A stretch of DNA of 64,000 nucleotides from Ignavibacteria bacterium. Its GTDB lineage: Bacteria > Bacteroidota > Ignavibacteria > DATCTW01. Position numbers and translations under genes: made by a program. Location: NCBI GenBank assembly GCA_036567745.1, contig DATCTW010000045.1:74471-138470 (forward strand). The letters are read 5' to 3'. How positions within the stretch are numbered: the first letter of the stretch is position 1; every line of letters begins with the position of its first letter. The notes under the pieces are model-generated. The model saw only the letters and a program-made list of their open reading frames with translations, ran no database searches and was not told the origin of the DNA. Positions 1-9,499 of this stretch are shown here, piece by piece.

Positions 1-201
1 ATGTCTCTCTTTGAATAGCTTTTTGAAGTGGTTTTAATCCCTTTCTTTGCGAAAACAAAGTCATAATTTATCTCTCCATTACTGAGGCAATTTTATACAA
101 CAGCTCGCAAGTTGTTGAAGACGGACCAAAGGTGGATTTTGGAAGAGGAGCGATAGGGAACAACTCCCAGCAACTTGCTGTTATCGAAAGTTGTGCCAAA
201 A

Positions 202-993
202 TCATATTACATCAAACAATGTTCTTTGTTTTTCTGATTTTATCAAATTATTATTTATTTCTTTTGTTTTTCCTTCTAATCTTTGTAGTATAGTTGTATA
301 GTATTCTTTTGAGATTTCAATAGTAATATAATTTCTCTTTAATTTTTTTGCTACATATGCCGTAGTTCCAGTCCCACCAAATGGATCTAATATAATATCC
401 TTTTCATTAGAACTTGCTTTAATTACTAATTCTAATAAATCCTCAGGCATCTGACAAGGATGCTCACCTATTCGCTCTTTAAAAGTTCCACAAACTCTTG
501 AAAATTGCCATACATCATCCGGTACCTTTCCTAATGGATTAGCTCTTTTATCGTTATAAATTAATTGTCTAGCTGATGGAATTCTTATATCATTATCATT
601 AAAAATAAAATTTTCTTTATCTTTAACAAAATAAAGTATATGAGTATGAGATCTATTAAATTTTTTTCTTTGATTTTGTCCAAAAGTATAATACCAAATA
701 ATCCAGTTCCTAAAATAAAATCCTTTCTTTTTGAGAATTATATTTATTTCAGCAGCAAATTCATCTCCTATAGCAATATAAATTGATCCATTATTTTTTA
801 AAATTCTGTAACATTCACTAATCCATCTATCAGACCATTTATAATATTCATCATAAGGCATATTGTCATTATGCAAATCATATTTTATTCCTATGTTAAA
901 AGGTGGATCAGCGAATATTAAATCAACAGAACCTTTTGGGATATTATTCATAATTTCTATACAATCACCTAAATATACTTTATTTATTTCCAA
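202..993 (-). CDS. Type II DNA methyltransferase, beta-class, likely N6-adenine (N4-cytosine not excluded)
   Basis: Motif IV ADPPF lies near the N-terminus and an AdoMet motif I-like DPFGGTGTT near the C-terminus; this is the permuted beta-class order. Length is 263 aa. The gene overlaps the upstream nuclease ORF by 14 nt on the same strand. Confidence 0.85.
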   Translation of the reverse strand: MEINKVYLGDCIEIMNNIPKGSVDLIFADPPFNIGIKYDLHNDNMPYDEYYKWSDRWISECYRILKNNGSIYIAIGDEFAAEINIILKKKGFYFRNWIIWYYTFGQNQRKKFNRSHTHILYFVKDKENFIFNDNDIRIPSARQLIYNDKRANPLGKVPDDVWQFSRVCGTFKERIGEHPCQMPEDLLELVIKASSNEKDIILDPFGGTGTTAYVAKKLKRNYITIEISKEYYTTILQRLEGKTKEINNNLIKSEKQRTLFDVI

Positions 994-1864
994 TATTTTC
1001 TTCTCCTCCTATATTAAATAATTCACACGGATTAATTTTAAATTGTAACTTGGTTGGATCTGGGGTTCCTCCTTTTCTTTGGAGGGTAATTCTGCCAATA
1101 TACAAACTACCTCGTGGTGAAATTTTTATTTCACCACTACCAAAAAAATTAATAGCAGTATTAATATCTTTAAGAATCCATGTTGTCGTATTTTCTTTTT
1201 TGTTAAACCGAGTTATTAAAATCCAATTAGCTGATAACCCTCCTCTTCCTTTTAGAATATCATTTACAATCAATAATCGATTATTTTCAAAAAAATTAAT
1301 AATTTTTTCTTGTATATTTTTAGGCATTTCATTAAAAAATATTCTTCTCTTGTCTTTTAACTTTATTTTTCTAATTTTGTTATTAAATAATTCTGGTTTA
1401 TTTTCTCCAGTAAAAAGTTTTAACCAAAAAGCAATTTCATCACAAAAATTCCACATTTTTTTATATTCATCAACAGATCTTTTATCAATTTGATTATAAT
1501 TAGCATCAGAATTTGCTTTTTTCAATGAAATATTTTCAATTTTTAAAATATTCCCAATCTTAATTCTAATTTTTATTTGAGCATCTGCTTTTTTGAATTT
1601 GATTAACTCTTCAAAATCATCTTCTTTTAATTCATATTCTGCTAATTTTTTTATATTAATTGTAGTTGGAATTTGAACAGCATCAACTGAAGTAATTTTA
1701 TTAACATTGTAACCCATAATTTCAAGCCATAATTTAGCTTCTTCATCTTTTAACCAATTATTAAATTTTTTGCAGATTTCAATTTCGTTTGCAAATCCAC
1801 CTTTAGCAGTAATAGATCCTATTTCTCTTCTATTCATTTTTAACCTATTTTGATTTTGGTACAA
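980..1864 (-). CDS. Putative Type II restriction endonuclease partnered with the downstream methyltransferase
   Basis: The ORF sits directly upstream of the MTase on the same strand with a 14-nt overlap, as expected for an R-M operon. I recognise no family motif. The called start at 1864 is a TTG; an ATG at 1837 (MNRREIGS...) is an alternative start. Confidence 0.5.
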   Translation of the reverse strand: MYQNQNRLKMNRREIGSITAKGGFANEIEICKKFNNWLKDEEAKLWLEIMGYNVNKITSVDAVQIPTTINIKKLAEYELKEDDFEELIKFKKADAQIKIRIKIGNILKIENISLKKANSDANYNQIDKRSVDEYKKMWNFCDEIAFWLKLFTGENKPELFNNKIRKIKLKDKRRIFFNEMPKNIQEKIINFFENNRLLIVNDILKGRGGLSANWILITRFNKKENTTTWILKDINTAINFFGSGEIKISPRGSLYIGRITLQRKGGTPDPTKLQFKINPCELFNIGGEENIGNK

Positions 1865-1962
1865 TTCCCACAGAACTCCTTCATAGACGACAGTGTCGCA
1901 TTTCTTCCATATATGTATGGATAAAGGGCGATATCATCTATCCAACTTTTTAATTTAATCAT
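1840..1962 (-). CDS. Small upstream ORF (40 aa, MIKLKSWIDDIALYPYIYGRNATLSSMKEFCGNCTKIKIG), copy 1
   Basis: ATG at 1962 (minus) is preceded by AGGAG 6 nt upstream. The stop TAA (1840-1842) lies 2 nt before the ATG at 1837 of the nuclease gene. A paralogous copy sits at 3923-4015. Not in the ORF track because it is under 60 aa. Confidence 0.3.
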   Translation of the reverse strand: MIKLKSWIDDIALYPYIYGRNATLSSMKEFCGNCTKIKIG

Positions 1963-1985
1963 GTTTAATCTCCTTGTAAGATTTT
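1866..1985 (-). repeat. Duplicated leader segment A (RBS plus N-terminus of the small ORF), copy 1; about 80% identical to 3920-4037
   Basis: Direct alignment of aactccttcatagacgacagtgtcgcatttc...catgtttaatctccttgtaag against 3920-4037. Confidence 0.8.
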
Positions 1986-2123
1986 TTCTAAGTTGTAATA
2001 GATAAAAGATTTAAATCTATTATTGCTGTATTTTTTTAAAAGGAGTTCTTTTCTTAAATCTTCAAAGTTATAAACAGATAAATTTACCACTTAACTATAT
2101 TTTACACTTTTATTTATATTATA

Positions 2124-2188
2124 ATTTTACAAAAAAAAATCTGGAAAAGCAATATTTTTATGAATAGTATTTTCGATGAAGTGATTAT
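2124..2188. repeat. 65-bp block B (attttacaaaaaaaaatctggaaaagcaatatttttatgaatagtattttcgatgaagtgattat), copy 1
   Basis: Base-for-base identical to 4253-4317. It has the same orientation and the same relative position upstream (minus-strand sense) of segment A. Confidence 0.85.
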
Positions 2189-2225
2189 TAAAATGGATCG
2201 ATAGCTAATATTCGGTAACTTGCAG

Positions 2226-3266
2226 TTAGACGTTGGCCATCTCTTTTTTTTCTATTATTAAATTAATTATTTCTTTTAAAATTTCTAAAAAAACTTCAAT
2301 TTCTTTTTCACTGTAATCTTTGTTTATTAACCATTTTAGATTATCACCTGCATTAGTAAATAATCCGGTTTTTTCTAATTTATTTCTATAAATATCAACA
2401 ATTTTTTCTGAATCTTCAACTTTTTTTATTATATTTTCAAAACCAGTATAAATACTTTGTTTAAATACACAATTAGGAGGATAACCAAATAATAAAGCAA
2501 TTTTTTCATTATTGAAAATAGTATTTAATGAAAATCCTTTTGAACCCCAAATAAAATGTAATTTTTTAGATTTTGCAAATTCAAATAATTTTGAAAAAAC
2601 TTTCTGTCCATTTTTATCGAGGGATTTGATAAACTCATTTTCATTAACTTTTGGTAGTGAGGCAGATTTAATTTCTTGTTTTTTATATTCTTCATCACCA
2701 ATTACATAATCTAATGTAATTATTTTTTCGCCTGATTTTGTTTGAAAATATTTAAATTCAAGGCAATTTATATTAATTCCATTTTTTCTTAAAAAAGTTG
2801 CGGTTTGTTTTATTTCTTTTGTAATATTTTGAGCAACAATTAATAAAATTAATTTTTTATTGAATGATACATTTTCATTATTTTGAAAAAATTGTTGATG
2901 ATAATCTTGGAGATCAACTTCATCCCCAAAGTAATTTTTAAATATATCGTTTAGTTGGCTGTAATCTAAATTTTCAATAAATGACGCATATTCTAATATT
3001 TGAGCAACAGTATCTCTCGGAGTTCTATCTCTTTTCAATTCAATAATAACAGTATTTCCGTTTTTATCAACCCCTAATAAATCAATAAATGAATTTAAGT
3101 TGGTAGTAACTTGTCTGCCAATAATTAAAACATTACTTTTTTCAAAAAAATATTCAGGATTTTTTTCTAATAGTATTTCTAAATCTTGCTCAATATTATC
3201 TTTTTTAAATAATTCTTCTTTATATTCTGATAATTTTCCATCTTTATTGATTGTAAATAATTTCAT
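2226..3266 (-). CDS. NucS/DUF91-like PD-(D/E)xK nuclease-domain protein with an uncharacterized C-terminal domain
   Basis: Residues ~45-100 (VLIIGRQV...IDLLGVDKNGNTVIIELKRDR...VAQILEYASFI) match the RecB-like nuclease core of DUF91/NucS: E/D...D...ELK...QxxxY. The remaining ~230 aa are unrecognised. The gene lies between two R-M systems. Confidence 0.55.
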   Translation of the reverse strand: MKLFTINKDGKLSEYKEELFKKDNIEQDLEILLEKNPEYFFEKSNVLIIGRQVTTNLNSFIDLLGVDKNGNTVIIELKRDRTPRDTVAQILEYASFIENLDYSQLNDIFKNYFGDEVDLQDYHQQFFQNNENVSFNKKLILLIVAQNITKEIKQTATFLRKNGININCLEFKYFQTKSGEKIITLDYVIGDEEYKKQEIKSASLPKVNENEFIKSLDKNGQKVFSKLFEFAKSKKLHFIWGSKGFSLNTIFNNEKIALLFGYPPNCVFKQSIYTGFENIIKKVEDSEKIVDIYRNKLEKTGLFTNAGDNLKWLINKDYSEKEIEVFLEILKEIINLIIEKKEMANV

Positions 3267-3455
3267 TTATATCAACTCCAAAAAGTGGTGGTATGTATTT
3301 AACTTTTGGGGGCTTTGCATTTGGGAGAGTTTCAAAGCACAAAACATTCAAACAAGCAGAGACTTTGATAGAAGCACAAAGCTTTATTTAATCACTGAAC
3401 CACCACTTATAAGTAAGTTGTGTTGTAAGCCGTTTTTATTCGTCCATTAAATGCT

Positions 3456-3780
3456 CTAAGTCGTTTTTTTTTCGTTTCCAATTCCTTTTGGATTTGGCCC
3501 AAATACATTTATTCCAATTTCACTATCAGCGAAAAGCATCCATAAAAAGTAAAATGGAATAATTTGATACCAACCATTATTACCTATGTCATGGCATCTT
3601 TTTGCACCTTGTGATAGCAAAAACCAAATGGCTGGAATTGATAGTAAGTACATAATGTCTTCTTCTAAATCAGCATACAGGATAAATAGATAAGCTATAA
3701 AATTGTAAGCAAAATAATATTACTTAGCCAGAATTCAGTTCTTGTGATACGTCCTTCAAATGAAAATGGTTTTTTAAACA
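3456..3780 (-). pseudogene. DUF805-family small membrane protein gene disrupted by a frameshift
   Basis: The N-terminal piece MFKKPFSFEGRITRTEFWLSNIILLTIL ends in a stop. The rest continues in another frame: ...AYLFILYADLEEDIMYLLSIPAIWFLLSQGAKRCHDIGNNGWYQIIPF...GPNPKG, which is the DUF805 RRxHDxGxSGWW...GPN signature. The frame switch is near 3700-3715. Confidence 0.5.
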
Positions 3781-3922
3781 TAGCTTTTTGATCCTAATTG
3801 TTAAACATTTAGTCTTTTATGTAATTACTTTTTGTAAAGTCTGCATGTATAAACCTCAATTTTATCAAGTGTTAATTTGTCTCTGTGTTTGTCTAGTTCG
3901 CATAAGCTGTCTTTCAAAAAGG

Positions 3923-4015
3923 CTATAACTCCTTCATAGATGACAGTATCGCTTTTTGTCCACATATGTATGGATTAAGGGCGATGTTATCTATCCAACT
4001 CATAAGCTTAATCAT
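3923..4015 (-). CDS. Small upstream ORF copy 2 (30 aa, MIKLMSWIDNIALNPYICGQKAILSSMKEL)
   Basis: Paralog of 1840-1962 with an AGGAG RBS. A premature stop makes it shorter than copy 1. It lies upstream of the DUF805 pseudogene. Confidence 0.25.
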   Translation of the reverse strand: MIKLMSWIDNIALNPYICGQKAILSSMKEL

Positions 4016-4252
4016 GTTTAATCTCCTTGTAAGGTTTGGTCTAAAGGGTCTTTTATCCTTACGATGTTTCTTGATTTCATAAACAAATATTTTTTTAAGC
4101 AATGTGTATTAAAATATAACAAGGGTTTTTGGATATAAATAATAATACTCTCTATATATTATTTATACCTTTCAACATTTTTTTTTCTTTAAGATATAAT
4201 GAAGAGTTGTTTACTGCTTTCCTTTTTTCAATTTTATTTTTTTTATGTTATT

Positions 4253-4317
4253 ATTTTACAAAAAAAAATCTGGAAAAGCAATATTTTTATGAATAGTATT
4301 TTCGATGAAGTGATTAT
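4253..4317. repeat. 65-bp block B, copy 2
   Basis: Identical to 2124-2188. Confidence 0.85.
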
Positions 4318-4473
4318 GAAAAATGTAGCTCGAAGAGTTAATATATAGTATAATTTCGATAAAGAGATCACCAAAAAAGTGAAGAGATAAAATGCGAAAA
4401 AGTATTTTATTGTTGGTATAGATTTATTTTCTATTGTTCAATTTCTTATTAAAGGCAGGACTTTAATTTTTAT

Positions 4474-7113
4474 TTATCCAAAGCTCTCTTCAATAATCTT
4501 TTTTTCTTCTTCTGTTATACCATAAATTTGATAGACAAGCTCATCAATTTCTGCATCGGTTTTTTTTATTTCTTCTTCAATTTTTGCTCTTTCATCTGTC
4601 TTCTTGTCTCCGATTTCGTTAAGGCGTTTGTTGAGAGAAAGCATTTTATCAACAAAATGGATTATTTTATCTTGTTCAGCAATAGACAATATTTTAATAG
4701 GAAATTTTTTTGCATTAGCTATTAATATTTTTTGAAAAAGATTTTTTGTAGGGTCTAAATATTTCTCTTTGTGATAGTAAGTTATTAATTTAGAGTTTAA
4801 TATAGCGAGAATATATTTTATTTTAACTTTAGTTTCATCTTTTGACAAAATATTAAATCCTATTTGCGAATTATATAGTTCCTCATTTGTATAACCTGCG
4901 TATATTCTTGGTGGTTTTCCGCTGATTATTTGCCTCACAACAATACGAGGTTTTGTAAAGAATCTCTTTTCTCTCGGAGCGCCTAACCAATTACCATAAC
5001 TAATATATTCTTTTTTATCCCAGTAAATACCATATCTAATAATATTTTCTCCAGAAAGTAGAGGTTTAAAGGTTTCATTCTTTTTTGTTTGAGAATGAAA
5101 AACCCTATTTTTTATTTGTTGTTCAGAATGTCCTTTATATTTATCATATGGGGTTAGACCAAGTGAAAAATCACATATTTCTATAAGATTTGTATTTTTC
5201 TCTTCTATTTTCGCGAGTATCTTTTTTACAATTGTATTTATTGTAATGTTAAAGTTAAAGTTTTCAGCTTCCCATACATTTTGATTGTAATATGTAATTT
5301 TTGGACAATTATCTTTTTTAATCCTGTTAATTGATATTTCTCTAGGATAAAGATAGACTTCACATTCTTCTGATTTCTTTTTCTTAGTTTTTTTATAAAT
5401 CAAAATAACTGTCTCAATTTTAACTCCCTCAAAAATATTATCTGGTAATCTTACAATCTTTTTAAGATTAGTATTAAATAATAACAATTTTCTTATTTTG
5501 GTATAAGACTCGTTATACAGTATTGAATTAGGTATAATAAAACCAAAGTAGCCCCCATCCTTTAATAAAGCTAAAGATTTTTCAACAAAAGTAGAATACA
5601 AATTCATTCTATTTTCTACAGTATTATAATTTTCAAAAAGGAATTTTACTATTTTAGGATCAAGTTGTTTTATATCAACATACGGTGGATTCCCAATTAC
5701 AACATCAAACCCACCTTCTTGCATAACTTTTTTAAATTCTTCTTCCCATTTAAAAGCTTTATCTCCTGCTATTGAGGGGTCATCAATTAATGAGTTCCCG
5801 CATTTTATGTTTTCCTGAAGTAATGGAAGGCGTTGCCCTTTTTCTGCAATCTTTAACAAAAGGTTAAGCTGTGCTATCTCTACCGCCTGTTTATCTAAAT
5901 CCACACCGAAAATGTTATTTTTGAGTATTTTTACTTTTGATGTGAATGGCAGACCTGTTTTAAAATCTATTTGTGTCTGTGAATAGTTTTTATCATGCTT
6001 CGCATAATATTCATTCAAAACATCGAAAGCTTTTATCAAGAATGAGCCAGAGCCACAAGCAGGATCTAAAACCCTTATTTTTTCAGGATTAACTTTTTTT
6101 TCTTTAAGCAGTTCCCCCAAAGTATTCCTTACGATATAATCTACAATATAAGTGGGAGTATAATAAATTCCTTGCTCTTTTCTGTGTGCGTGGTTTTCTG
6201 TAAGCTTTGCTCTTTTCTCACTTTTCTTTAAGATATGGCCAAGATACTGCTCGTAAATGTTACCTAAAATATCTGCTTCAATGGCTGAAAAATCATAAGA
6301 AACAGATTTGTCTTTTGTAAAATAAAGTCCTTCAATAATTTCGTGCAAAACTTCGTTGTCTATATCCAAATTGTCGCATAAATGATTTGCAAAAATTTTG
6401 CTGTTATAATTTTTGTCAAAATAGGCAAAAACCTCTCTCAAACTTTTTATTAACTGCCCTCTGCCTTTGCTTTCCCATTCCCTAAAGCTGGAAATCAAGG
6501 TTTTTGCTTCAAGCTCCCTATCTTCGCAGTTTCTGATAAAAATTAATCTGTCTAAAATTCTTTGAACAGCTTCATCTAAATCTTCTTCTGTGAGGTTTTT
6601 GTTTAATTTAGTTATATTCTTTAAAAGCAATTCCCTGAATCTTGTAAAATCTGCCAAAAGCTGTTTATCAACAGAAATCTTTTTTGTTTTCTTACCCCAT
6701 TTCTCTGCCTCTTTATCTATCAATCCCTGTTCAAAACTTTCTTTTGATAAAAGAGACAATTCGCTGAACCTATCTAAAAACTCCTGGCAGGGAATTGTTT
6801 TAAGATGATTCTGCAATGGATTAGAAGTTTTCCATTCAGCATTAAAGATTTTTACGCTTTCAAAGTTAGTAAGAATAGCCCAAGTGCAACCTTTATGCCA
6901 AGCATAATTTATTGCCTGTTCAATAAATTTAGGATTGTCCAAATCTTCTTTTAGAGATTTTGCTTCCAAAAAGAATTTTGGAATACCGTTAATTCTGAAA
7001 CCATAATCAACTCTTTTTTTGGAAACTTTTTCTTCAGCAGTAACCTCGTTTGAATCTTCAGTATTCCACCCTAACGCACGAAATAGAGGTAGAATAAAAT
7101 CCTTTTTAGTCAT
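4474..7113 (-). CDS. Type IIG/IIL single-chain restriction-modification enzyme (N-terminal PD-ExK nuclease, gamma-class N6-adenine MTase, C-terminal target-recognition region)
   Basis: N-terminus VDYGFRINGIPKFFLEAKSL is a D...EAK nuclease motif. Motif I is VLDPACGSGSFL and motif IV is VVIGNPPYV. The 879-aa size is comparable to MmeI-type enzymes. No separate S subunit, R subunit or BREX partner genes are nearby. Confidence 0.75.
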   Translation of the reverse strand: MTKKDFILPLFRALGWNTEDSNEVTAEEKVSKKRVDYGFRINGIPKFFLEAKSLKEDLDNPKFIEQAINYAWHKGCTWAILTNFESVKIFNAEWKTSNPLQNHLKTIPCQEFLDRFSELSLLSKESFEQGLIDKEAEKWGKKTKKISVDKQLLADFTRFRELLLKNITKLNKNLTEEDLDEAVQRILDRLIFIRNCEDRELEAKTLISSFREWESKGRGQLIKSLREVFAYFDKNYNSKIFANHLCDNLDIDNEVLHEIIEGLYFTKDKSVSYDFSAIEADILGNIYEQYLGHILKKSEKRAKLTENHAHRKEQGIYYTPTYIVDYIVRNTLGELLKEKKVNPEKIRVLDPACGSGSFLIKAFDVLNEYYAKHDKNYSQTQIDFKTGLPFTSKVKILKNNIFGVDLDKQAVEIAQLNLLLKIAEKGQRLPLLQENIKCGNSLIDDPSIAGDKAFKWEEEFKKVMQEGGFDVVIGNPPYVDIKQLDPKIVKFLFENYNTVENRMNLYSTFVEKSLALLKDGGYFGFIIPNSILYNESYTKIRKLLLFNTNLKKIVRLPDNIFEGVKIETVILIYKKTKKKKSEECEVYLYPREISINRIKKDNCPKITYYNQNVWEAENFNFNITINTIVKKILAKIEEKNTNLIEICDFSLGLTPYDKYKGHSEQQIKNRVFHSQTKKNETFKPLLSGENIIRYGIYWDKKEYISYGNWLGAPREKRFFTKPRIVVRQIISGKPPRIYAGYTNEELYNSQIGFNILSKDETKVKIKYILAILNSKLITYYHKEKYLDPTKNLFQKILIANAKKFPIKILSIAEQDKIIHFVDKMLSLNKRLNEIGDKKTDERAKIEEEIKKTDAEIDELVYQIYGITEEEKKIIEESFG

Positions 7114-7527
7114 CTCCTCATTGTATTTACTGACTCTTTTTTCTTCTACAACTTTGTCATATTTCTCTAAAAGATTTCTGATTTCTTGTTTTATAGTTTC
7201 CTCCCAGAATAAATTGTTTATATAAATAATATTTTATAACCCAAAAATCAAGGAAAAGAATATCCCCTTTAATTTTTTATCAGTTACAACTTTTAAAGAG
7301 TAGCTGATTCACTATAAAAAAATATTAATAAATATATTTTTTTAACTAAACTTTCTATATATAATAAAGTTAAATAAAACTAATAGATTGGAATATTTTG
7401 GGGCATTTACAAGGTTTCAATATTAGAAATATAGATTAAAAATAACATTGATCAAAAAAAATATTTAAATATTATTAGTATAAAACTTATTAAATAACAG
7501 ATTATATACTTTATAGGGAGATTTTTT

Positions 7528-9159
7528 ATGAATTTTAAAAATTTATCACTATCAGCAAAAGTTTTGGCTGGTTTTATAATTATTGCCTTGATAGCATCAA
7601 TTAATACTTACATTAATTTATTATCAGCTAAAGCCAGTAATAACATAACACAGCAAATCATCAAAATCAGAACACCTAAAATTATTGATTTACTAAATAT
7701 AAAATTCAATATTTCAGAAATAAAATCTTATAGAAGAACATTTATTTCACGAGAAATGTCTATAAATGATAGAGAGAAACAATATGGTAAAATGGAGAAT
7801 AATTTTATATCTTTAAGAAAATCTTATGATAGCTATGATAAAACAGAAAAAAGGGAATTTGCTTATAAAAACTGGGAATTATTTAAAACTAATTTTAAAA
7901 TATGGGAACAACTCCATAATAAATTCATTTCAAAATCAAAGGAACTTGATAATGCATTAAAATTAAACCATAGTAATGTTGATAATTTATACAAAGAATT
8001 AGCGCAAATAACATTAGTTGAATTGGCAGAATATACTTCTAAAATGGAGAGTATTATTGATGAATTAGTAAATTATAATTTTGAAATGAATAAACAGGAA
8101 AGCGATTTAGCAGATAAAAAAATAAGTAATACTAGTACTATAACCATTATTTTAGCTATTATATTATTTATTATTGCAATTTCGTTAGGTTTATATATTT
8201 CAAGAAATGTTATAAAAAAGCCAATATCTGATTTAATAAATGCAATAAAAAAAGTGATACAGGGTGATTTTACAACACAAATAGAGATTAAAAATAAAGA
8301 TGAAATCGGAAGAATATCTGAAATGATAAATGATTTGATAAAATCGAGAAAAGATGAAATTACAGATTTACTTAAAAGAAGTGAAACAATTATAAATGCA
8401 AGCAAAAGACTGTTGAATGTTAGTATAAATGTACAGGAAAATTCTGAAAAATTAAATGAACAGACTTCCATTACAGCGGCATCAAGCGAACAGGTTTCGA
8501 CAAATATTTCTACAGTATCAAGTGCGGCAGAGGAGATGGCTTCAAGTGTAAAAGAAATTGCAAAAAATACAAATACTGCCTCATCAATATCAAATGATGC
8601 TGCAAGTAAAGCAACAGTTGCTGGTGAAGTAATAGATAGACTTGGAAAAAGTTCATCAGAAATTGGTAATATTGTTAAAGCAATAAACACAATAGCAGAA
8701 CAAACAAACCTTTTAGCTCTTAATGCAACAATTGAAGCAGCAAGAGCCGGAGAGAGTGGTAAAGGTTTTGCAGTTGTAGCTAACGAAGTAAAAGAGCTTG
8801 CCAAAGAAGCTGGTAAAGCTACAGAAGATATTTCCAATAGAATTAAAATGATACAGGAAGAGAGCAATAATGCAATAAATGTTATAAAAGAAATTATTGA
8901 AAGCATCACACAAATTAATGACATATCAAATACTATTGCTTCGGCTGTTGAGGAGCAAACTGTAACAACTTCAGAAATTACCCGAAACTTATCTGAAGCC
9001 ACTAAAGGAGCTTCTACAGTTGCGGAAAGTAATGCTGAAATTTCTAAAACAGTAGAAGATTACAGAAATATGTCAACACAAATAAAAGATGATGCGCATA
9101 ACCTTGAAGAGATAGCTACTTCACTAAAGCAACATCTAGTTAGTAGTTATAAAATTTAA
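7528..9159 (+). CDS. Methyl-accepting chemotaxis protein
   Basis: Contains an N-terminal TM segment, a second TM segment plus HAMP region around residue 200, and an MCP signalling domain ([33 protein letters not shown]). Confidence 0.9.
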
Positions 9160-9205: not shown

Positions 9206-9425
9206 TAAAAATATTAAACTTTTATATTAATAATATCATACCATTTTGTAGTATAAAAAATAAGATTTTTTTTATCTCACTTTTAACTTTCTGCTACAAG
9301 TCTGAGAAGCAAGCTTTAAAGTTTCATAAATTTAGATTTTTTTACTGACTAGTTTTAATAATTTTTACAAAAAAAGTAAAATTAATCAGAAATTTAATAT
9401 GTAGGTTTAAGAATGGGATATTTAG

Positions 9426-9499
9426 TGGGCCCTGTAGGACTCGAACCTACGACCCACAGATTATGAGTCTGTTGCTCTAACCAACTGAGCTAAGGGCCC
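9426..9499 (-). tRNA. tRNA-Met (anticodon CAT; elongator Met or Ile2/lysidine type not distinguishable)
   Basis: The reverse complement GGGCCCTTAGCTCAGTTGGTTAGAGCAACAGACTCATAATCTGTGGGTCGTAGGTTCGAGTCCTACAGGGCCCA folds as a cloverleaf with a GGTTCGAGTCC T-arm and a CAT anticodon. Confidence 0.85.

Follow-up and report, generated by a model that had tools for sequence, protein, structure and literature searches.

Why should a 40-codon open reading frame (ORF) with a strong ribosome-binding site end just two nucleotides before the start of a restriction endonuclease (REase) gene? The question arises in a 64,000-nt stretch of an Ignavibacteria contig, hereafter the window (positions count from its first letter, and all features located below lie on the reverse strand). 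An earlier note on this DNA did not recognise the arrangement, and suggested a leader peptide that delays or meters REase expression after transfer of the restriction-modification (R-M) system. The comparisons reported here point elsewhere: the locus is probably a decayed integron-type platform, made up of a recombinase end and an attI-like site, whose ORF feeds the cassette inserted behind it.

The small ORF and its surroundings

The small ORF (copy A) occupies 1840-1962, with an ATG at 1962-1960, 40 codons and a TAA stop at 1842-1840, and encodes the peptide MIKLKSWIDDIALYPYIYGRNATLSSMKEFCGNCTKIKIG. Its Shine-Dalgarno (SD) sequence, AAGGAG (1970-1975), stands 7 nt before the ATG and within the final codons of a recombinase remnant. 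The TAA is followed by AA and then by the REase ATG (1837-1835), and every element of this arrangement described in the earlier note is present in the sequence.

The REase is the first gene of the cargo behind copy A. It is a 285-aa enzyme of the R.HinP1I family (980-1837; PF11463, E = 5e-56) and precedes a 263-aa N6_N4 DNA methyltransferase (MTase) with a TTG start (202-993; PF01555, E = 3e-61), which overlaps the REase 3' end by 14 nt and is called as the same gene in L004 (L numbers denote loci compared with the window). A formal alternative REase start is TTG 1864. Of 14 aligned homologues, 12 begin no more than one residue away from the ATG 1837 position (MNKxEIGS...), the remaining two have long unrelated N-terminal extensions, and the nearest relative, 99% identical, is called from the equivalent ATG. 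These N-termini do not support TTG 1864, and ATG 1837, on which the earlier note had built, can be taken as the real start. It is preceded by a weak AGGT SD only. Exact look-up of the REase from either start returned no record.

The second, divergent copy of the ORF that the earlier note had placed before a DUF805 pseudogene was found at 3923-4015 (copy B). It consists of the 30 conserved codons followed by TAG, which comes directly after the junction (GAGTTA|TAG); the stop lies about 140 nt from the next gene, the pseudogene itself (3456-3780, a PF05656 fragment), which is the cargo behind this copy. The two copies are 86% identical over a 118-nt repeat (1874-1991 / 3927-4044), with 15 differences within the 90 coding nt, and their alignment gives the 3 synonymous and 8 non-synonymous codon changes counted before. 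Homology between them breaks sharply past codon 30 (...TCTATGAAGGAGTT), so that the last 10 codons and the stop of copy A are outside the repeat. Codons 1-30 (1962-1873) thus form the conserved part, assigned below to the platform and its attI-type site, and codons 31-40 with the stop (1872-1840) are contributed by the inserted cargo.

A further repeat, missed by the earlier note, is found upstream of both copies. This block, D3 (2108-2193 / 4237-4322), measures 86 nt, with 95% identity and an uninterrupted match of 65 nt, and the spacer between it and the small ORF cannot be aligned across the two window copies. D3 contains sigma-70-like hexamers, either TTGCTT-17-TAAAAT with an upstream TG or TTTCCA-18-TATAAT. 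It also occurs in L006, L007, L015 and L016, and a variant follows the R-M operon of L004. D3 may be the platform promoter, although promoter-like matches in the region did not exceed background (55 against 45.5 +/- 5.3 in shuffles), in a scan that covered promoters other than the Bacteroidota type.

Distribution of the conserved block

Searches for the 90-nt block yielded 2 WOR-3 genomes and 13 metagenome contigs, as well as 21 called small proteins, and it occurs in Ignavibacteria, WOR-3 and other metagenome contigs; on this comparative evidence the repeat is not due to chance. The earlier statement that the ORF is conserved holds for its first 30 codons only, which are what is found in the other genomes and contigs. 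The peptide relatives were found by exhaustive HMMER search, a word-indexed protein search with the 40-aa peptide having given no candidates. An exact 22-mer scan of the GTDB species genomes gave 0 matches, a codon-aware degenerate pattern gave 2 in the same genomes, and a search of viral contigs gave 0. P0125 was rejected as a relative, being a repetitive translated sequence with a tandem LNPYCCGQQTST repeat. A covariance-model scan of 1-8000 with Rfam 15 (E <= 1) had no match on either copy, and none of the small ORFs between 2226 and 1837 matched Pfam.

In all lineages the start codon, ATG or GTG, is preceded at 5-8 nt by an SD-like GGAG core, and signals equivalent to the AAGGAG-N7-ATG of the window are seen in the WOR-3, G and L018 lineages. 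In one lineage (L012, L014, L017, L020, L021) a 2-nt insertion removes the start; the 90 nt are kept there, in front of three different cargoes.

This distribution bears directly on the proposal of a leader peptide dedicated to the R-M system and acting on REase expression in place of a C protein. Its attraction lies in the gene order, REase before MTase, in an ORF that ends 2 nt before the REase start, and in the lack of a C-protein gene, as no HTH C gene was found between 2226 and 1837 and no C-box. The same conserved ORF, however, stands before methylase-first operons and before genes unrelated to R-M. The outcome named in advance as refuting the idea, that related REases have no homologous small ORF upstream, is the one observed. 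There are 3342 HinP1I-family homologues, yet the small ORF is absent from the wider family and was found before this REase in its own Ignavibacteria lineage alone (L004, L005, L015, L016); it travels with the recombinase and attI block, and not with the REase family. Nor does the mRNA resemble an attenuator, since the fold of 1985-1806 (z = -1.7) has none of the typical alternative RNA structures and gives no indication that the REase start is hidden. The comparative data largely refute a dedicated R-M leader, which we regard as very improbable. No evidence of delayed or metered REase expression was found, and the conserved part of the ORF belongs to the recombinase platform; what stands of the earlier interpretation is a conserved ORF with its own SD and a stop 2 nt before the REase, and what falls is R-M-specific regulation.

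A fixed junction with variable cargo

Conservation of the block stops at GAGTT(A) in 13 aligned loci, in every lineage. In copy A the corresponding crossover core would be GAG|TTC (1873-1878, with G at 1876 and TT at 1875-1874), where homology to copy B and the other platforms ends. What follows differs from locus to locus, with 14 different downstream contexts when the further contexts of L024, L029 and L031 are included, and R-M systems are found in at least 6 of the 14. Behind the conserved 30 codons there are methylase-first R-M operons in L006, L011, L014, L024 and L031, a fused type IIG-like methylase in L018, and unrelated genes in L023, L029 and window copy B. The defence cargo comprises R-M systems, AbiJ-like, NucS-like and ATPase genes.

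The cargo of relatives terminates in attC-like foldbacks of 68-88 nt, and the inverse core at the cassette 3' end is exactly complementary to the 7-8 nt that begin with the junction GTT. In L018 the left junction GTTATATG pairs with CATATAAC, in L023 GTTAGCC pairs with GGCTAAC, and in both L024 and L029 GTTAGGC pairs with GCCTAAC; L029 has three attC-like sites in a row. Fold energies are significantly better than those of shuffled sequences in L018 (z = -4.2) and in L016 (z = -3.8), the latter from the same species as the window and 97.8% identical to it over 3.3 kb. The L023 foldback has the same end-to-end architecture with unexceptional energy (z = -0.75). Because of the fixed junction and of these attC-like cargo ends with a complementary inverse core in relatives, we interpret the 90-nt block as an attI-type site.

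Within the window the attC signature is partial and confined to one cassette, which carries a NucS_C-like gene (cassette 2226-3303; gene 3266-2226, PF01939). Its left boundary is G|TTAAAT (3303-3297), where homology with L016 breaks beside the attC-like foldback of that locus; a canonical inverse core, GTCTAAC, overlaps the stop codon of the gene, and the attI frame would stop in the cassette leader at a TAA directly before the ATG. At the 3' end of the REase-MTase operon no convincing attC-like foldback was found (candidates z = -1.35 and -0.12), and this operon is assigned as a putative cassette by analogy and by its junction. Short foldbacks after the MTase and NucS genes were not significant, no attC site follows the AbiJ-like gene of L015, and attC scanners (TAAC...GTTA with fold filters), which pick up the strongest sites only, returned nothing credible in the window. 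An element integrated in tandem with its own recombinase was considered as an alternative to cassettes. It may explain two platform remnants in one island, and was set aside given the attC-like ends and the exact core complementarity.

The recombinase and its remnants

Directly 5' of the 90-nt block there is always the stop codon of a tyrosine recombinase gene in the same orientation, akin to IntI and XerA, or a decayed remnant of such a gene. Intact recombinases of 391 or 371 aa are found directly upstream of the block in L009, L023 and L024. In the window the remnant before copy A (1992-2069) corresponds to residues 115-140 of the 391-aa L009 recombinase (BLASTP 58% identity, E = 2e-8) and also matches the recombinase genes of L009 and L023 at the DNA level; it lies within a spurious 41-codon ORF (2090-1965) that ends 2 nt before the small ORF. 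Before copy B a C-terminal remnant (4018-4122; ...SRNIVRIKDPLDQTLQGD*) likewise ends 2 nt before the small ORF, and the L006 copy, 89% identical to it, matches recombinase residues 349-388. Judged by these remnants, the recombinase is dead in this Ignavibacteria lineage, where it is reduced to residues 115-140 in copy A and to about 349-388 in copy B, so that the site would now serve as an expression adaptor only. Fusion of the recombinase to the ORF by a programmed frameshift or by readthrough was also considered, in view of an A7 run in the G and H lineages, an in-frame TGA in WOR-3 and a fused form (P0156). It was not adopted, as the frame relationship differs between lineages.

The best match of the recombinase among solved structures is VchIntIA (2a3v). 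Its score against the XerA-type family NF040815 is above the cutoff (232 vs 220), whereas that against TIGR02249 is below (219 bits vs 265). An additional domain around patch III is regarded as a mark of integron integrases (Messier and Roy, 2001, cited in PMC9668308). This IntI-specific insertion is absent, as 14 recombinase residues stand opposite the 56 residues 183-238 of VchIntIA and PF00589 matches without a break (209-370, profile positions 2-170 of 172). Because the insertion is absent, use of attC-type sites by this recombinase is putative. The neighbouring recombinase is the presumed user of the attI-like site, and a true IntI elsewhere could be responsible.

Stop-start geometry and probable translational coupling

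Past codon 30 the tail of the small ORF differs with each cargo, as the frame crosses the crossover and the cassette supplies the stop. The stop lies no more than 4 nt from the first gene start in 8 of 12 independent scorable contexts, and the other two frames together give 2 of 24 (Fisher p = 5.6e-4). The gaps are +2 in the window and in L018, +3 in L006, +4 in L011, +1 in L023, 0 in L029 and -4 in both L014 and L024. Stops in the attI frame are also near the gene start in internal cassettes (0, +6, -7, +15 and -20, and, less certainly and read by eye, +2 in the third cassette of L029), and part of the geometry may simply come from short, A/T-rich leaders. The mRNA fold (z = -1.7), with no indication of a hidden REase start, also speaks against a coupling role. 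Translational coupling is the best reading of this geometry.

In such a platform the block 1991-1873 would begin with the 3'-terminal codons of a tyrosine recombinase gene in the same orientation and continue with the attI-like site of that recombinase. The frame of the site would run over the crossover GAG|TT (codons 29-30) into any inserted cassette, the REase-MTase operon being inserted cargo that gives the last 10 codons and the TAA. Transcription would begin in the upstream block 2193-2108, and ribosomes would enter at the small ORF through its strong SD, translate its 40 codons, terminate 2 nt before the REase ATG and re-initiate there. The MTase is probably coupled in turn, because its start overlaps the REase end by 14 nt. 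The sequences themselves establish the anatomy, the homologies, the position of the junction, the attC-like ends of relatives and the stop-start geometry; from them we infer promoter activity, translation of the small ORF, coupling, and the adjacent recombinase as the enzyme of the site.

Both copies could instead be inert relics of dead recombinase genes and their sites, with a stop that lies near the REase by accident. The recombinase is after all reduced to fragments of 26-40 residues, the small-ORF region has diverged by 5.8% between the window and L004 when the R-M genes differ by about 1%, and copy B stops immediately, about 140 nt from its pseudogene. The first palindrome of the site (ATAGACGACAnTGTCGTCTAT) has also degenerated in the window lineage, yet the SD, ATG, open frame and D3 are retained. 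All five window-lineage variants (winA, L004, L015, winB, L006) keep the SD, ATG and open frame intact despite 6-17% divergence, D3 is 95% conserved next to a spacer that cannot be aligned, and the stop-start geometry recurs across lineages. Expression signals thus appear to be kept while recombination signals decay, and we consider inert relics quite unlikely.

Possible constraint on the encoded peptide

A different possibility is that the small ORF encodes a functional protein that acts in trans, with the role as a DNA site being secondary; such a protein might assist or regulate either the recombinase or cassette expression. The 30 conserved N-terminal residues read K.WIDD.vvY...GQKATLSSMNEL, and pN/pS is below 1 in 28 of 28 pairwise comparisons (0.19-0.89). 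Values of 0.2-0.9 suggest some constraint on the peptide itself, which a pure role in ribosome delivery would not require. The decay of the palindrome in the window lineage, from GACGACATTGTCGTC to GATGATATCGCCCTT, took three synonymous changes and two conservative ones (DDIVV to DDIAL) and preserves the peptide better than the symmetry of the DNA. In addition, four deep lineages retain the start codon and SD, and gene callers recognised 21 relatives.

Other features speak against this possibility. The C-terminal tail differs in each context, from 0 to 64 residues, variable columns are spread across all codon positions (14, 15 and 21), and the stretches without any variation fall on the two palindromic boxes and on the crossover core. 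The lineage of L012, L014, L017, L020 and L021 keeps the 90 nt without a start, and the peptide matches no Pfam family. A primary function in trans is therefore rated as unlikely, and the site with an embedded, cassette-feeding frame remains our preferred reading.

Comparison with known systems

The closest known analogue of the small ORF is ORF-11 in attI1 of class 1 integrons, where ORF-11, ORF-17 and ORF-18 have been described (Hanau-Bercot et al., 2002; reviewed in PMC8876359); the arrangement which the earlier note could not place thus has a close precedent. ORF-11 and ORF-18 extend across attI1 and end at a stop codon that belongs to the first cassette, whose translation they raise by termination-reinitiation (PMC8876359). 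The resemblance includes a short platform-encoded ORF with its own canonical SD and ATG, its overlap with the crossover, a stop supplied by the first inserted cassette and the closeness of that stop to the first cassette start codon; window copy B, which stops at TAG right after GTTA, is also like ORF-11. By analogy, the small ORF would raise expression of the downstream cassette. There are clear differences. The platform encodes 30 codons here rather than 11, and intI1 is divergent in class 1 integrons, whereas here the ORF follows a co-oriented recombinase and would be coupled to its stop. Unlike in attI1, conservation extends across phyla here and there are weak signs of constraint at the peptide level; the block and attI1 have no sequence similarity.

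In the 'inverted integrase' integrons of Treponema, Chlorobi and others, attI lies directly downstream of a co-oriented intI. Ghaly et al. (2022; PMC9668308) place attI immediately downstream of intI in archaeal integrons as well, and complete integrons in Ignavibacteriae are reported in PMC9024848. Such integrons share with the present loci a recombinase with attI directly downstream and a cassette array in the same orientation, insertion at G|TT, attC-type imperfect palindromes with an RYYYAAC inverse core and a GTTRRRY core, and common integrase-less decayed (CALIN-like) forms. They differ in that the recombinases here are without the IntI-specific additional domain and in that an R-M system very often takes the first position; an ORF embedded in attI is not mentioned in the passages of PMC9668308 and PMC9024848 covered here.

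Sedentary chromosomal integrons have been described as stores of anti-phage defence cassettes (bioRxiv 10.1101/2024.07.02.601686), and R-M systems on integrons have been noted (PMC3874152). The likeness lies in defence genes as cassettes and in island content that varies between strains. Platform and recombinase type differ, as do the short arrays here and the tRNA-Met-flanked island with two platform remnants. One edge of this variable island, which holds both copies, is at 9406, about 19 nt past the 3' end of a tRNA-Met gene (9425-9499; feature 9406-9499). L007 is 99.4% identical to the window up to that point and then has different cargo. Classical type II R-M control by C proteins, antisense RNA or methylase autoregulation (PMC3874152) likewise concerns expression of the REase gene. 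It differs from the present case, in which there is no HTH C gene or C-box and the upstream element is not R-M-specific.

Significance

The loci could tentatively be grouped as a distinct integron-like class that crosses phyla, with a Xer-type recombinase that lacks the I2 insertion of IntI and recombines folded attC-type sites, an attI site in a coupled 30-codon ORF and a first slot that prefers R-M systems, although we think such a class possible rather than likely. It may cover Ignavibacteria, WOR-3 and hot-spring or digester lineages, the conserved 30-codon ORF would be linked in translation to the recombinase as well as to the first cassette, and the peptide may be functional. If it is real, the I2 domain would be no prerequisite for attC-based cassette capture. 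Stabilisation of such arrays by post-segregational killing is a familiar idea, which recurrent R-M systems in the first slot would fit. A recombinase that works on attC-type sites without the IntI-specific helix would also bear on the evolution of integrases from Xer-like ancestors (compare PMC4792948).

The 90-nt block is a sequence signature that marks platforms even after loss of the recombinase, at loci which tools requiring the IntI-specific domain would probably call CALINs or miss. A ribosome-feeding ORF built into attI suggests a recurrent design of integron-type systems that is not restricted to clinical class 1 integrons. The seemingly unusual regulator of an R-M system would then be a trace of the building of a defence island, through cassette capture beside a tRNA-Met gene.

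The small ORF and the start of the restriction endonuclease

The small ORF preceding the restriction endonuclease (REase), copy A, runs for 40 codons on the minus strand, from an ATG at 1962 to a TAA at 1842-1840. It has a Shine-Dalgarno sequence (AAGGAG, 1975-1970, minus strand) and stops 2 bases ahead of the REase ATG at 1837, confirming what the earlier note had seen. The REase, also on the minus strand, belongs to the R.HinP1I family (PF11463), and an N6_N4 methylase follows directly on the same strand, its start overlapping the REase end. The small ORF might have been the REase N-terminus read in another frame from a TTG at 1864. However, 12 of 14 aligned homologues (family = 3342) start no more than one residue away from the site of ATG 1837 (MNKxEIGS...), the remaining two having long unrelated N-terminal extensions, and in P0001, a relative's protein 99% identical to the REase, the gene call begins at the equivalent ATG. 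TTG 1864 is therefore ruled out, which leaves the small ORF as a cistron of its own.

Copy B (4015-3923, minus strand) lies ahead of a DUF805 pseudogene. The ORF repeat (1874-1991 and 3927-4044) is 86% identical between the copies, and homology breaks off sharply past codon 30, at ...TCTATGAAGGAGTT. Upstream of both copies is a second repeat, D3 (2108-2193 and 4237-4322; 95% identity), with sigma-70-like hexamers. Because D3 is conserved and has a consensus match, though one that does not exceed background, we infer that it is a promoter. The spacers between D3 and the small ORF cannot be aligned with each other. Two short-read contigs of the same genome (L001 and L002, Logan, SRR2059973) break inside a 65-nt identical D3 run, at window 2159 and 4282-4288, and such islands will thus be fragmented in most assemblies.

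Relatives and the recombinase platform

A word-indexed protein search with the small ORF gave no match, but an exhaustive profile search found small ORFs with common first 30 residues, divergent thereafter. A codon-aware DNA pattern located the 90-nt block encoding these residues in two WOR-3 MAGs and 13 metagenome contigs, the MAG source of the window being Ignavibacteria/Bacteroidota; the pattern matched no viral contig. A second profile search yielded 21 called proteins and additional contexts. The same module stands ahead of another restriction-modification (R-M) system (N6_N4 methylase, HinfI REase and Mrr) in L006 and L007, and in L008 a tyrosine recombinase gene ends directly before the small ORF begins.

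L009, L023 and L024 carry intact recombinase genes (371-391 aa; PF13495 and PF00589) directly upstream of the block. Their products score above the cutoff of NF040815 ('XerA / integron integrase') and below that of TIGR02249, and their top solved-structure match is the Vibrio integron integrase 2a3v; aligned to it, they lack the IntI-specific insertion of about 40 residues. In the window, the copy A spacer encodes recombinase residues 115-140 (E = 2e-8; the DNA matches too), and copy B encodes C-terminal residues 349-388, ending ...RIKDPLDQTLQGD and a stop, as does its 89% identical relative in L006. The two modules thus derive from recombinase genes by independent deletions, and both keep the upstream block and the downstream site.

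The adjacent recombinase, which lacks the IntI-specific domain, may be the enzyme acting on these sites; that a Xer-type recombinase runs a platform using attC sites is a tentative and rather doubtful proposition. An attI directly downstream of intI is reported for archaeal integrons (PMC9668308), as are complete integrons in Ignavibacteriae (PMC9024848).

An A7 run (GAGGAGAAAAAAAGTGG) occurs at the recombinase/small-ORF junction, some 10 nt ahead of the small ORF in L011, L013 and L023, and also in L012, L014, L017 and L021. The two frames are split by a single TAA in one lineage and by TGA plus one codon in WOR-3, and are fused in the called protein P0156. Slippage or readthrough, which would extend the recombinase by the small-ORF peptide, was considered as an idea.

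The probable insertion site and attC-like cassette ends

The block behaves like an attI-type site and consists of two related palindromes, ATAGACGACAnTGTCGTCTAT and AAGGCGACAnTGTCGTCTAT, followed by a core. In alignment A5 every lineage is conserved through GAGTT(A) and unrelated past that point, even inside one lineage when the cargo differs. The cargoes of relatives end in imperfect foldbacks of 68-88 nt whose inverse core complements the left junction exactly: GTTATATG and CATATAAC in L018, GTTAGCC and GGCTAAC in L023, and GTTAGGC and GCCTAAC in both L024 and L029, the last being one of three consecutive such sites. Foldback energies were far better than those of shuffles in L018 (z = -4.2) and L016 (z = -3.8); the L023 foldback has the right end-to-end architecture with unexceptional energy (z = -0.75). 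This conserved junction with complementary foldback ends is the signature of integron cassettes.

L016 is from the window's species (97.8% identity across 3.3 kb) and has an attC-like site directly ahead of a NucS-like gene. Window homology breaks between G and TTAAAT (3303-3297), and the canonical inverse core GTCTAAC overlaps the NucS-like gene stop. This gene (2226-3266, minus strand) encodes 346 aa, of which only an N-terminal NucS_C-like nuclease domain is recognised (E = 7e-7); it acts like a cassette, being common to the window and L016 in differing upstream contexts.

No credible attC was found where the window's own REase-methylase unit ends. Past the methylase and NucS-like genes, 160-200 and 2195-2226 (minus strand) have a common motif, TAAC-WGCAAGTTRCYG...CTATCGMTCC; neither folds significantly, and they may be truncated attC sites. 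The attC-like sites of L018, L023, L024, L029 and L008 have a common central motif (GGTTCG...CCAAATGCC...), which fits the homogeneous attC families of sedentary integrons, and the L016 (Ignavibacteria) site is a different, A/T-rich version.

Probable coupling, and constraint on peptide or DNA

The block keeps the Shine-Dalgarno sequence and start codon in four deep lineages, with the frame open through the crossover and the stop codon provided by the cargo. The gap from this stop to the start of the first gene is +2 in the window and L018, +3 in L006, +4 in L011, +1 in L023, 0 in L029 and -4 in L014 and L024. It falls within 4 nt in 8 of 12 contexts, whereas the two remaining frames together give 2 of 24 (Fisher p = 5.6e-4). 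Cassettes in internal positions show a looser tendency, the window NucS-like gene having a gap of 0. ORF-11 and ORF-18 of attI1, as described in PMC8876359, overlap the crossover point, take their stop from the first cassette and raise its translation through coupling, the peptide sequence being of little import. The arrangement of the frame here matches theirs. The earlier note had proposed a leader peptide that delays or meters the REase after transfer. This is partly right in so far as the small ORF is probably coupled to the REase; specificity to R-M systems was a misreading, as the module also precedes other cargo and is tied to the recombinase platform.

Variable columns of the block fall on each of the codon positions (14, 15 and 21) and invariant runs on the palindromes and core. 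Nevertheless, every pairwise pN/pS falls below 1 (0.19-0.89), and the window lineage has lost the first palindrome through synonymous and conservative changes. The peptide itself may also have a function. Against it, one lineage in which a 2-nt insertion abolishes the start still keeps the 90 nt before three different cargoes; its recombinase is dead too. We conclude that constraint on a DNA site, with upkeep of an open, translated frame, would explain most of the pattern.

Cargo and genomic setting

Of 14 contexts, at least 6 have an R-M system as first-slot cargo. It comprises a HinP1I-like REase with N6_N4 methylase (window copy A), N6_N4 methylase with HinfI REase (L006) or MvaI/BcnI REase (L014), and an Eco57I-like methylase (L018). 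L011, L024 and L031 carry N6_N4 methylase with an unannotated partner gene, which would have to be a REase for them to score as R-M; including all three gives 7.

An AbiJ_NTD4 gene comes next after the window operon (via L015). In L004, from another sample, the same operon is followed by a D3-block variant (1820-1895), that is, a further platform module, in place of the AbiJ-like gene; its homology with the window ends at window 154-155, after ...GTTCCCT. A fused type IIG-like R-M protein of 879 aa (4474-7113, minus strand; HSDR_N, N6_Mtase/Eco57I and TaqI_C) is encoded directly upstream of module B. Two platform remnants sit within one array in the window. In parallel, L029 (6052-8720) holds a remnant inside an array, between attC-like sites, its small ORF having a replaced N-terminus and following an unannotated 281-aa gene. 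In L031 (1-7000) a remnant with methylase cargo adjoins a type III CRISPR-Cas locus (Cas10, Cas6).

The island begins 19 nt past the 3' end of tRNA-Met (window 9406-9499; L007 1-529), as determined by strain comparison, and its content differs among strains. L007 belongs to the same species; it has 99.4% identity as far as the edge and continues with the module and a HinfI-type R-M system. Past the same edge the window has an MCP gene, a type IIG R-M gene and others. The locus is a defence island beside a tRNA gene, variable among strains, and the feature within it is best described as the putative attI-type site of an integron-like platform in decay, into which a probable coupling ORF is built.
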